Source: Escherichia coli
GTDB taxonomy: Bacteria; Pseudomonadota; Gammaproteobacteria; Enterobacterales; Enterobacteriaceae
Direction: 5' to 3' (one strand)
NCBI RefSeq assembly: GCF_036507355.1
Contig: NZ_AP027877.1
Length of the DNA: 64,000 bases
Shown: in pieces, positions 39,460-42,683 of the stretch
Numbering within the stretch: the stretch's first letter is position 1
Layout of the letters: each line of letters begins with the position of its first letter
Notes under the pieces: generated by a model
Told to the model about the DNA's origin: nothing
Databases searched by the model: none
The model's input: only the letters and a program-made list of their open reading frames with translations
Made by a program: the position numbers and the translations under genes

Positions 39460-41451
39460 TGGAGCACCTCAAAAACACCATCATACACTAAATCAGTAAG
39501 TTGGCAGCATCACCCGGGCTGGCTGATTATTTTCGTCAATTAGGGATTTCTGACAAGGAACAGGCGGCTCAATTTTTCGCCTGGTTGTTGTGCTGGCACG
39601 ATATTGGAAAATTTGCCCGCTCATTTCAGCAACTTTACCTGCACCCACAACTCAAGGTTCCGGAAGGCGCAAGAAAGAATTACGAAAAGATCTCTCATTC
39701 AACGCTGGGCTACTGGTTGTGGCATCATTATTTAAGTGAATGCGAAGAATTGCTTCCTGCCTCTTCACTCTCTACTCGCAAACTTAAACGTGTAATAGCG
39801 ATGTGGATGCCCATGACTACCGGGCATCATGGTCGGCCCCCTGACCGTATTGATGAACTGGATAATTTTCTGCCTGAAGACAAAGTTGCCGCGCGAGATT
39901 TTCTCCTTGAAATCAAGGCACTGTGTCCGCTCATAGAGATTCCCACATTCTGGGATAATGACGAGGGAGTTGAACTTTTAAAACAACTTTCCTGGTATAT
40001 CTCTGCAACAGTCGTACTTGCAGACTGGACGGGTTCGTCAACGCGATTTTTTCCACGCGTCGCACACCCAATGGATATTAAAGATTACTGGCAGAAAACT
40101 TTAGTTCAGGCTCAAAACGCCTTAACCGTCTTTCCTCCAAAAGCAGAAACCGCACCTTTCACCGGAATTAATACGCTGTTTCCTTTTATTGAGCACCCGA
40201 CACCATTACAGCAAAAGGTGCTGGATCTGGATATCAGCCAGCCAGGGCCACAGTTATTTATTCTGGAAGACGTGACTGGCGCAGGTAAAACAGAAGCGGC
40301 GCTTATCCTGGCGCACAGGTTGATGGCTGCGAGGAAAGCACAGGGTTTGTTTTTTGGCCTGCCAACAATGGCAACGGCCAATGCCATGTACGATCGGCTG
40401 GTCAAAACCTGGCTTGCTTTCTATTCGCCAGAGTCCCGCCCCAGCCTGGTGCTGGCACACAGTGCCCGCACATTAATGGACCGCTTTAATGAATCACTCT
40501 GGTCCGGTGATTTAGTCGGGTCAGAAGAACCGGATGAACAAGCGTTCAGTCAAGGATGTGCAGCCTGGTTTGCCGACAGTAACAAGAAGGCTTTACTGGC
40601 TGAAATTGGCGTCGGCACGCTGGATCAGGCGATGATGGCGGTGATGCCGTTCAAACATAATAATCTGCGGCTTCTGGGGCTGAGTAACAAAATCCTGCTG
40701 GCTGATGAGATCCACGCCTGTGACGCTTACATGTCATGCATTCTTGAAGGGCTGATCGAGCGGCAGGCGCGTGGTGGAAACAGCGTCATTTTGCTTTCTG
40801 CTACGTTATCCCAACAGCAGCGCGACAAACTCGTCGCCGCCTTTGCGCGTGGCACAGAGGGCCAGCAAGAAGCTCCGTTCCTTGAAAAGGATGATTACCC
40901 CTGGCTGACGCATGTCACGAAATCCGATGTGAACTCACACCGGGTAGCGACGCGCAAAGACGTTGAGCGTAGCGTCAGCGTGGGTTGGCTTCATAGTGAA
41001 CAAGAGAGTATTGCGCGTATCGAATCGGCGGTAAGTCAGGGAAAATGCATCGCCTGGATCCGCAATTCTGTCGATGACGCTATTAAGGTTCATCGTCAGC
41101 TGCTTGCCCGCGGCGTCATTCCCGCTTCCAGCCTTTCACTCTTTCATAGCCGCTTTGCTTTTAGCGATCGCCAGCGAATCGAAACGGAAACGCTGGCACG
41201 CTTTGGTAAAAATTGTAATTTAAAAAGATCATCGCAAGTCATTGTTTGTACACAAGTAATTGAGCAAAGTGTGGATATTGACCTGGACGAAATGATCTCC
41301 GACCTTGCCCCCATTGATTTGCTGATCCAGCGAGCGGGGCGATTACAGCGACATATCCGCGATATTAATGGTCAGTTAAAGCGTGACGGAAAAGACGAGC
41401 GTTCCCCTCCTGAATTGCTGATTCTGGCCCCCGTCTGGGACGACGCTCCTG

Positions 41452-41781
41452 GTGACGAATGGTTCGGCAGTGCCATGCGTACGCGCCTTTACAGAGGCCG
41501 CGCTTAAAGTCTCACCAACCGGAAAACAAAACAGCTTTGCCAGCCGTGCCTACGCCTCCTGGGCGCTGGCGGAAAAAGGCACTGTTCAACCGCGTTCTCT
41601 GGCGGCGGCTTTCTATGAACCCATTAATGGTACCCGTCAGTTAGATGTGGCGGTGCAGCGTATTACAACGCTTCGCGAAAACATGAATACGGTCTACGAA
41701 CAGAAGACTGAATGCGCAAGTTTTGACGTGATGAACAAACAGGGAAGCATGAAGGACGTACTGGACTTTATCTGCGCGTAA
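41452..41781 (+). pseudogene. 3' remnant of a cas gene, most plausibly the end of cas7/casC fused out of frame to cas3
   Basis: 109-aa frame ending 10 bp before the cas5 ATG, the position casC occupies in an intact I-E operon; the alternative reading is a frameshifted cas3 tail. Confidence 0.4.
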
Positions 41782-41791
41782 GGGGCGGCTT

Positions 41792-42683
41792 ATGAGCCAA
41801 TATCTGATTTTTCAGCTTCATGGGCCAATGGCATCCTGGGGCGTCGATGCCCCCGGCGAAGTGCGTCATACCCATGATCCGCACGCACATTCCGGTGGGA
41901 TCGGTCGCCTGCATTATGCTCGAACCGGGAACGAGAGTTTCCCACGCGGCGGTGCATCTGGCCGCCACGGTGGGAACACTGCTGGTCTGGGTCGGTGAAG
42001 CGGGCGTTCGCGTTTACTCTTCCGGACAACCCGGAGGGGCGCGGGCAGATAAATTACTCTACCAGGCAAAGCTGGCTTTAACGGAAGATCTACGCCTGAA
42101 GGTGGTGCGCAAAATGTATGAATTACGTTTTCGTGAGCCACCGCCAGCTCGCCGTTCAGTGGATCAGCTACGGGGAATTGAGGGATCCCGCGTTCGCCAG
42201 ACCTATGCATTACTGGCGAAACAATATGGTGTGAAATGGAATGGTCGCAAATACGATCCTAAAGACTGGGAAAAAGGCGATGTTGTGAATCGCTGCATCA
42301 GTGCTGCCACATCATGTCTGTACGGTATTTCTGAAGCGGCAGTATTAGCCGCGGGATATGCGCCCGCTATTGGATTTATTCATAGTGGCAAACCGCTTTC
42401 ATTTGTTTATGACATAGCCGATATCATTAAATTTGATTCGGTTGTGCCAAAGGCATTTGAAATAGCGGCAAGACACCCGGCAGAACCTGATAAAGAAGTC
42501 AGATTAGCCTGTCGCGATATTTTCCGTAGCACTAAGTTAACGGGCAAATTAATACCGTTAATTGAGGAAGTCCTTGCTGCAGGTGAAATTGAACCACCAC
42601 AACCCGCGCCGGATATGTTACCGCCTGCCATCCCTGAACCTGAAACGCTGGGTGATAGTGGTCACCGGGGGCGCGGCGGATGA
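41792..42683 (+). pseudogene. cas1: cas5 5' stub (about 27 codons, MSQYLIFQLHGPMASWG…) joined out of frame to cas1 lacking about 38 N-terminal codons
   Basis: Cas5-like start at 41792; from about 41876 the other frame reads Cas1 (IRTHIPVGSVACIMLEPGTRVSHAAV… to the C-terminus). Confidence 0.75.

Follow-up and report, generated by a model that had tools for sequence, protein, structure and literature searches.

The 64,000-nucleotide stretch of Escherichia coli DNA analysed here (contig NZ_AP027877.1; below, the window) quite probably carries the decayed remnant of a type I-E operon of CRISPR (short palindromic repeats, clustered and regularly interspaced) and the associated cas genes, located at the usual chromosomal site from cysH/hok to iap/cysD and altered by two clean internal deletions and, last, by the insertion sequence (IS) IS1. 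The locus is an ordinary pseudogenised cas-E operon, and decay of this kind is already well described. To locate the lesions, window positions 37901-43400 were compared by BLAST with the intact I-E operon of NZ_CP062811 (L001; L numbers denote the loci compared). Three collinear blocks were found at 95-98% identity over hundreds to thousands of bases (E=0), and at such lengths and E values a chance match is of no concern. The cas3 block (window 39515-41481) corresponds to L001 3513-5479. The cas7e 3′ end, a 10-bp spacer, and the cas5e 5′ end (41480-41877) correspond to L001 9001-9398 with 98.0% identity. Ahead of these blocks, the upstream region and the cas3 5′ end (37901-38746) correspond to L001 2675-3521 with 98.8% identity, and after them cas1e, cas2e, and the start of the array (41876-43219) correspond to L001 10804-12148.

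At ~35-48 kb, the window contains cysI, cysH, and a hok/sok locus, then the cas genes with a short CRISPR array, and finally cysDNC preceded by iap on the minus strand. This is where the type I-E system of E. coli usually lies, and it is so annotated in the intact NZ_CP062811 and in O157:H7 PV15-279 (L006).

Position and sequence of the deletion junctions

The two junctions, here called J1 and J2, were defined by three-way alignments with L001, L002, and L006 for J1 and with L001, L003, and L006 for J2. An alignment to an intact operon had been proposed in an earlier note on this DNA, and the alignments made here placed the breakpoints at 41480/41481 and 41876/41877. The loss at J1 is 3,523 bp relative to L001 and 3,520 bp relative to O157:H7, with a +1 frame shift, and it takes out the last ~185 codons of cas3, the cas3-casA spacer, all of casA and casB, and cas7e up to codon ~251. 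Meanwhile, J2 removed 1,407 bp, including most of cas5e, the whole of cas6e, and the 5′ end of cas1e. This length is a multiple of three, yet the frames of cas5e and cas1e differ, so the frame opened by the Cas5 start enters cas1e in the wrong register and meets a stop at 41998. A collinear middle piece of ~396 bp was kept between J1 and J2. In total, the operon lost ~4.93 kb of ~8.56 kb.

The 668-aa open reading frame (ORF) 39501-41507 is Cas3 with the HD domain and the helicase core (NCBIfam profiles), and its end at 41507 is where the earlier note had put the end of the cas3 frame. The note had also described an overlapping frame (41452-41781), in the place of the end of cas7, that stops 10 bp short of a cas5-like ATG. 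This description proved correct: residues 6-82 of that 109-aa ORF match the C-terminal end of Cas7/CasC (TIGR01869 positions 248-325 of 325, E=9.6e-21), the DNA aligns with cas7e, and the ATG at 41792 begins a 68-aa ORF that matches the Cas5e profile (TIGR01868 positions 1-38, E=1.7e-6). Furthermore, the cas5 frame was said to pass into cas1 near 41870-41878, and J2 lies inside this range. The 287-aa ORF 41820-42683 is Cas1e (TIGR03638 positions 36-268 of 269). This Cas1 remnant aligns with residues 40-304 of PDB 3NKD, and the counterparts of residues 1-39 are missing.

Both junctions are free of filler DNA, of IS ends, and of any repeat longer than 2 bp. The short direct repeats for which the earlier note had suggested a search came down to TA at J1 (1-2 bp, as the count varies with the reference allele) and GA at J2 (2 bp in all references). 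In addition, the 9-mer GGTGACGAA occurs ~22-30 bp 5′ of both parental J1 breakpoints, off register by one base (L001 ~5450-5458 and ~8972-8980; the cas3-side copy is window 41451-41459). A match like this near the breakpoints has P ~0.003 by random-pair simulation over operon positions; it was noticed post hoc, is not the crossover point, and was not used as evidence.

Table 1. Features of the remnant locus and its immediate surroundings (window coordinates)
Feature	Position	Strand	Description
hok/sok-type toxin-antitoxin locus	38079-38372	+	Rfam sok RF01794, 105 bits, at 38079-38235; Hok-like ORF ends at 38372
cas3 5′ fragment	38565-38746	+	codons 1 to ~61, severed by IS1; ORF 38565-38768 matches Cas3 profile NF007248 positions 4-38
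IS1, 768 bp	38747-39514	-	transposase ORFs of 91 aa and 167 aa on the minus strand
cas3 middle part	39515-41481	+	codons ~58-714 of 899; L001 3513-5479, 95.7%; frame crosses J1 and stops at 41507
J1	41480-41481 (shared TA)	+	cas3 codon ~714 of 899 joined to cas7e codon ~252 of 351
cas7e 3′ fragment	41482-41781	+	codons ~252-351 plus stop; bulk of the 109-aa ORF 41452-41781
cas5e 5′ fragment	41792-41877	+	28 codons plus 2 nt; native ATG 10 bp past the cas7e stop
J2	41876-41877 (shared GA)	+	links cas5e codon 29 with cas1e codon ~39/40
cas1e 3′ fragment	41878-42683	+	without first ~39 codons and native start; K-12 Cas1 residues 40-304
cas2e	42680-42973	+	full length, 97 aa, sole intact cas gene; TIGR01873 positions 1-87 of 87, E=1.8e-39
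Residual CRISPR array	43070-43220	+	3 type I-E repeats and 2 spacers; three 29-nt copies, 61 bp period

Order, number, and cause of the events

To find other carriers of the allele, the 287-aa and 109-aa ORFs were used in exact-protein look-ups. GCA_905398585.1 (L007/L010) and Logan ERR3330519 (L008/L011) are 99.97-100% identical to the window over both junctions. An ENA metagenome contig (L013) also has both, and SRR31122001 (L009) covers J2 only. The same junctions in independent assemblies mean that they are no assembly artefact and that the double-deletion allele is inherited. Neither junction was spanned in one piece in 5,426 complete E. coli genomes (an 801-bp region and 120-bp junction probes were used), and exact scans gave no match for J1 in JGI metagenome contigs and none for J1 or J2 in GTDB species-representative genomes. 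Over the flanking iap-cysDN region, no complete RefSeq E. coli genome exceeds 98.6% identity with the window. Furthermore, the window and L007 differ by 2 substitutions in ~4.7 kb, and the remaining cas fragments have no further stops or frameshifts. Thus, the decay is recent.

The IS1 element that splits cas3 is a lesion absent from the earlier note. It shares 98% identity with the IS1A annotated in L003, it has inverted repeats, and it is flanked by a perfect 9-bp target duplication, CGGGCTGGC, at 38738-38746 and 39515-39523. Beyond this element, no other IS or large repeat was found in the 64-kb window. In L007 and L008, the cas3 fragment is unbroken (721-aa product), and one copy of CGGGCTGGC stands at the site of the window's IS1. 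Since these two loci carry both deletions without IS1, both deletions are older than IS1, and IS1 is not their cause. The IS1 insertion is the latest of the three events, and only this part of the order of J1, J2, and IS1 is firmly shown.

As for the mechanism, both junctions are clean and their microhomology falls in the 0-3 bp range of microhomology-poor end-joining or template switching. Direct repeats of ~4 bp or more at both parental breakpoints, as in short-homology slippage, were found at neither J1 nor J2. Likewise, the signs of IS-mediated deletion are missing, because J1 and J2 have no IS sequence and the IS1 target duplication is intact. Clean junctions with 1-2 bp of microhomology, no IS, and no long repeats point to RecA-independent illegitimate joining, which would have proceeded by end-joining after a double-strand break or by replication slippage/template switching.

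The earlier note had argued for two separate deletions. That there are two distinct junctions is borne out by the alignment and by the retained ~396 bp piece, and that they arose separately is favoured but not proven. The key sequence is L012 (ENA ERZ926208), a 574-bp metagenome contig that is identical to the window across J1; at the position of J2, it carries on with another 53 bp of intact cas5e, as in L001 and L006. Over the cas7-cas5 segment, L012 shares 99.0% identity with the window versus at most 97.1% with any complete E. coli genome. This closeness to the present lineage speaks for a real relative with J1 only and against a chimeric join to a common intact strain. Judging from these sequences, two successive deletions, with J1 first, would be the most likely history, about twice as likely as a single complex event.

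Several points weigh against this account. The order and the separateness of the deletions rest on the single contig L012. Four of the five differences between L012 and the window cluster in 16 bp (41845-41860), the last being 17 bp 5′ of J2, and this cluster could be a recombination tract, a trace of recombinational repair of J2, or a chimeric assembly or mis-join. In addition, the complete E. coli genomes, JGI, GTDB, and the exact-protein look-ups gave no sequence with J2 alone and no long contig with J1 alone. L012 is the sole J1-only sequence among the products of these look-ups and their cluster members, where the other short Cas7 fragments lack the J1-specific N-terminus. The nearest intact operon is only ~96-98% identical to the window, and hence the microhomology at J1 is 1 or 2 bp according to the allele. 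Finally, it is by its gene content that the locus is judged to be one that cannot interfere or process CRISPR RNA (crRNA).

A single complex event is a rather unlikely alternative, although not a negligible one. Under this explanation, template switching of the type of fork stalling and template switching (FoSTeS) or microhomology-mediated break-induced replication (MMBIR) would have made two jumps, with ~396 bp copied between the skipped intervals. J1 and J2 are indeed alike in their minimal 2-bp microhomology without filler, and all long contigs with J1 also carry J2. Moreover, L018, from another strain, shows that events with several junctions do happen in this operon, since its complex rearrangement includes a cas7e-casB segment in inverted orientation. 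But L012 combines J1 with a cas5e that is intact over the J2 site, and its allele is closest to this lineage and not to a common intact strain. Furthermore, single deletions of each type are found alone in other lineages, namely cas3 to cas7e in L004, L015, and L021 and cas5e to cas6e in L002.

It is much less probable that the deletions are a scar of CRISPR autoimmunity, in which a self-targeting spacer left survivors that had lost the interference genes. Deletions of cas genes are a frequent way out of type I self-targeting. The genes taken out here are exactly those of interference, and casA/casB have been lost repeatedly in independent lineages. None of the six spacers (2 beside cas2 and 4 in orphan arrays), however, matches intact cas operons or other parts of the window, and neutral decay accounts for the same pattern. 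In addition, the type I-E system is normally silenced by H-NS in E. coli (cited in PMC2886076, PMC10910852).

Assembly errors or IS-mediated adjacent deletions are ruled out for practical purposes: IS1 does sit 2 kb upstream and many Shigella/E. coli variants have been ascribed to IS-promoted deletion (Almendros et al. 2014, PMC3903273), but the junctions are identical in four independent assemblies of different source, neither has an IS end, and IS1, with its intact 9-bp duplication, is missing from sister genomes already carrying both deletions. Equally, the reading of frame 41452-41781 as the true Cas3 C-terminus after a one-base frameshift, which would leave one deletion only, has the 56-bp overlap with the end of the cas3 frame in its favour, but it is excluded by the match to the Cas7/CasC profile through its C-terminus, by the DNA from 41480 on, which aligns at 98% with cas7e and not with cas3, and by the unrelated sequence with which intact cas3 runs on past 41481.

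Retained parts and loss of function

The remnant locus has no full-length Cas3, which is split by IS1 at codons ~58-61 and cut at codon ~714 of 899. Of the Cascade genes, casA (cse1), casB (cse2), and cas6e are absent, and only codons ~252-351 of cas7e and codons 1-28 of cas5e are left. In the adaptation module, cas2e is intact, with the same length as the annotated cas2e of L001, and cas1e is missing its start and ~39 N-terminal residues. Only cas2e and the three-repeat array remain intact; the 29-nt I-E repeats adjoin cas2 as in a functional type I-E system. With no Cascade, no Cas6e, a broken Cas3, and a Cas1 without N-terminus and start, the locus is predicted to be unable to interfere, to process crRNA, or, very probably, to adapt. 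In addition, the cas3-casA intergenic region lies within the J1 deletion. In K-12, this spacer reportedly holds the H-NS-silenced casA promoter.

A few further observations concern IS1 and cas3. IS1 has entered cas3 independently in at least three lineages: the window, L003 (NZ_LR536431, at 3431-4198), and L020 (at ~1925-2694). In L003, it lies at cas3 codons ~53-55, 17 bp from the window's site and in the opposite orientation, and the third copy, an IS1B in NRZ99027-2, lies near cas3 codon ~198. IS1 may have a target preference in the 5′ part of cas3. Meanwhile, across the join of the IS1 end and cas3 (39501-39530) there is a match to a sigma-70-like promoter (TTGGCA, 18 nt, GATTAT), and the start of the 668-aa ORF is a TTG within the IS1 terminus. 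This consensus match could represent a hybrid promoter made by IS1 that reads into the cas3 remnant.

The leader-distal spacer of the residual array (43160-43191) is identical to one in the array of O157:H7 PV15-279 (L006 15850-15881), in agreement with Touchon and Rocha, who described conserved ancestral spacers. About 20 kb upstream there are two more small I-E-type arrays, at 22566-22777 (4 repeats and 3 spacers) and 23280-23369 (2 repeats and 1 spacer), which correspond to the orphan CRISPR2.2/2.3 (CRISPR-II) locus. The spacers of these orphan arrays have no match elsewhere in the window or in the loci compared. In addition, the hok/sok locus lies directly 5′ of cas3, as in all the intact loci compared, where a Hok/Gef coding sequence occupies this position.

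For annotation, the 109-aa and 68-aa ORFs have been deposited as the hypothetical proteins BED21181.1 and BED21182.1 (VEE46_09490, VEE46_09500). They are the C-terminal remnant of Cas7 and an out-of-frame fusion of Cas5 and Cas1, respectively. Although it has matches to cas3, cas1, and cas2, the strain should count as negative for CRISPR-Cas I-E. The sequences of J1 and J2, absent from the complete E. coli genomes searched, can serve as lineage-specific markers. Beyond annotation the locus is of little import; its allele is a further example of the recurrent erosion of cas-E in E. coli.

Comparison with other degraded cas-E loci

Complete E. coli genomes yielded a minimum of nine additional independent events in this operon, deletions as well as rearrangements, and the overlaps at their junctions measure 2-9 bp. 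Given as codons, the joins from cas3 run from 751 to cas7e 171 (L004), 720 to cas6e 9 (L005), 679 to casA 389 (L014/L016), 762 to cas7e 313 (L015), and 589 to cas7e 58 (L019-L021). The others run from casA 75 to cas7e 256 in L003, which has its own IS1 as described above, from casA 302 to cas7e 306 in L017, and from cas5e 128 to cas6e 184 in L002. The remaining locus, L018 (NZ_CP062895), is a complex inversion: at 3329-4436, a cas7e-casB segment in inverted orientation is attached to cas3 codon ~668, and after it comes the 3′ part of cas7e in direct orientation. This deletion plus inversion suggests template switching at the operon. In addition, the allele joining cas3 589 to cas7e 58 is common to many clinical E. 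coli genomes (for example NZ_CP173532, NZ_OZ501666, and NZ_CM180094 for L019-L021), and it later gained ISEcp1 (L019) or IS1B (L020) in cas3 in different strains, a stepwise decay parallel to the history of the window.

Of the 11 left breakpoints, seven lie between cas3 codons 589 and 762, and two lineages have used codons 252 and 256 of cas7e. The compared loci were chosen from matches ranked by their likeness to the deleted layout of the window, and this ranking favours such breakpoints. Thus, we do not claim a hot spot. We consider it doubtful that the interval from the cas3 3′ third to cas7e is a true deletion hot spot or a selected outcome. Under such a reading, casA/casB would have been lost time and again in separate lineages, together with the region of the casA promoter, at junctions poor in microhomology, and the allele of the window would be one case of a convergent and non-random route that silences interference.

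Among the degraded loci, those of strain 41 (cas3 751 to cas7e 171), WL164 (cas3 762 to cas7e 313), 23GD35035 (cas3 589 to cas7e 58), and VTB96935v (cas5e 128 to cas6e 184) also have internal deletions of the operon with overlaps of 2-9 bp, most of which start in the 3′ third of cas3 and lose casA and casB. However, these loci have a single junction each and keep cas5e-cas6e-cas1e-cas2e intact, whereas the window has two junctions and only cas2e intact. Compared with the intact operons of O157:H7 and NZ_CP062811, the blocks of the window have the same order and orientation and differ by the ~4.93 kb that is missing and by the IS1 that splits cas3.

Degraded cas-E loci are well known from previous studies. 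Touchon and Rocha (2010, PMC2886076) found 17 partial Ecoli-subtype systems among 51 genomes, with truncations, IS insertions, and few repeats where the cas genes were eroded, and Almendros et al. (2014, PMC3903273) catalogued minor CRISPR2.1 arrangements in which cas genes were truncated or interrupted. The present locus belongs to this class by its site between cysH and iap, its pseudogene fragments, its two deletions, its IS1, and its three repeats. Many published Shigella/E. coli variants have deletions flanked by an IS, whereas those of the window have no flanking IS. In other respects, the published degraded cas-E loci of E. coli and Shigella are like the locus studied here, with the same cysH to iap site, the same gene set and repeat type, partial deletions, IS elements, and few repeats.

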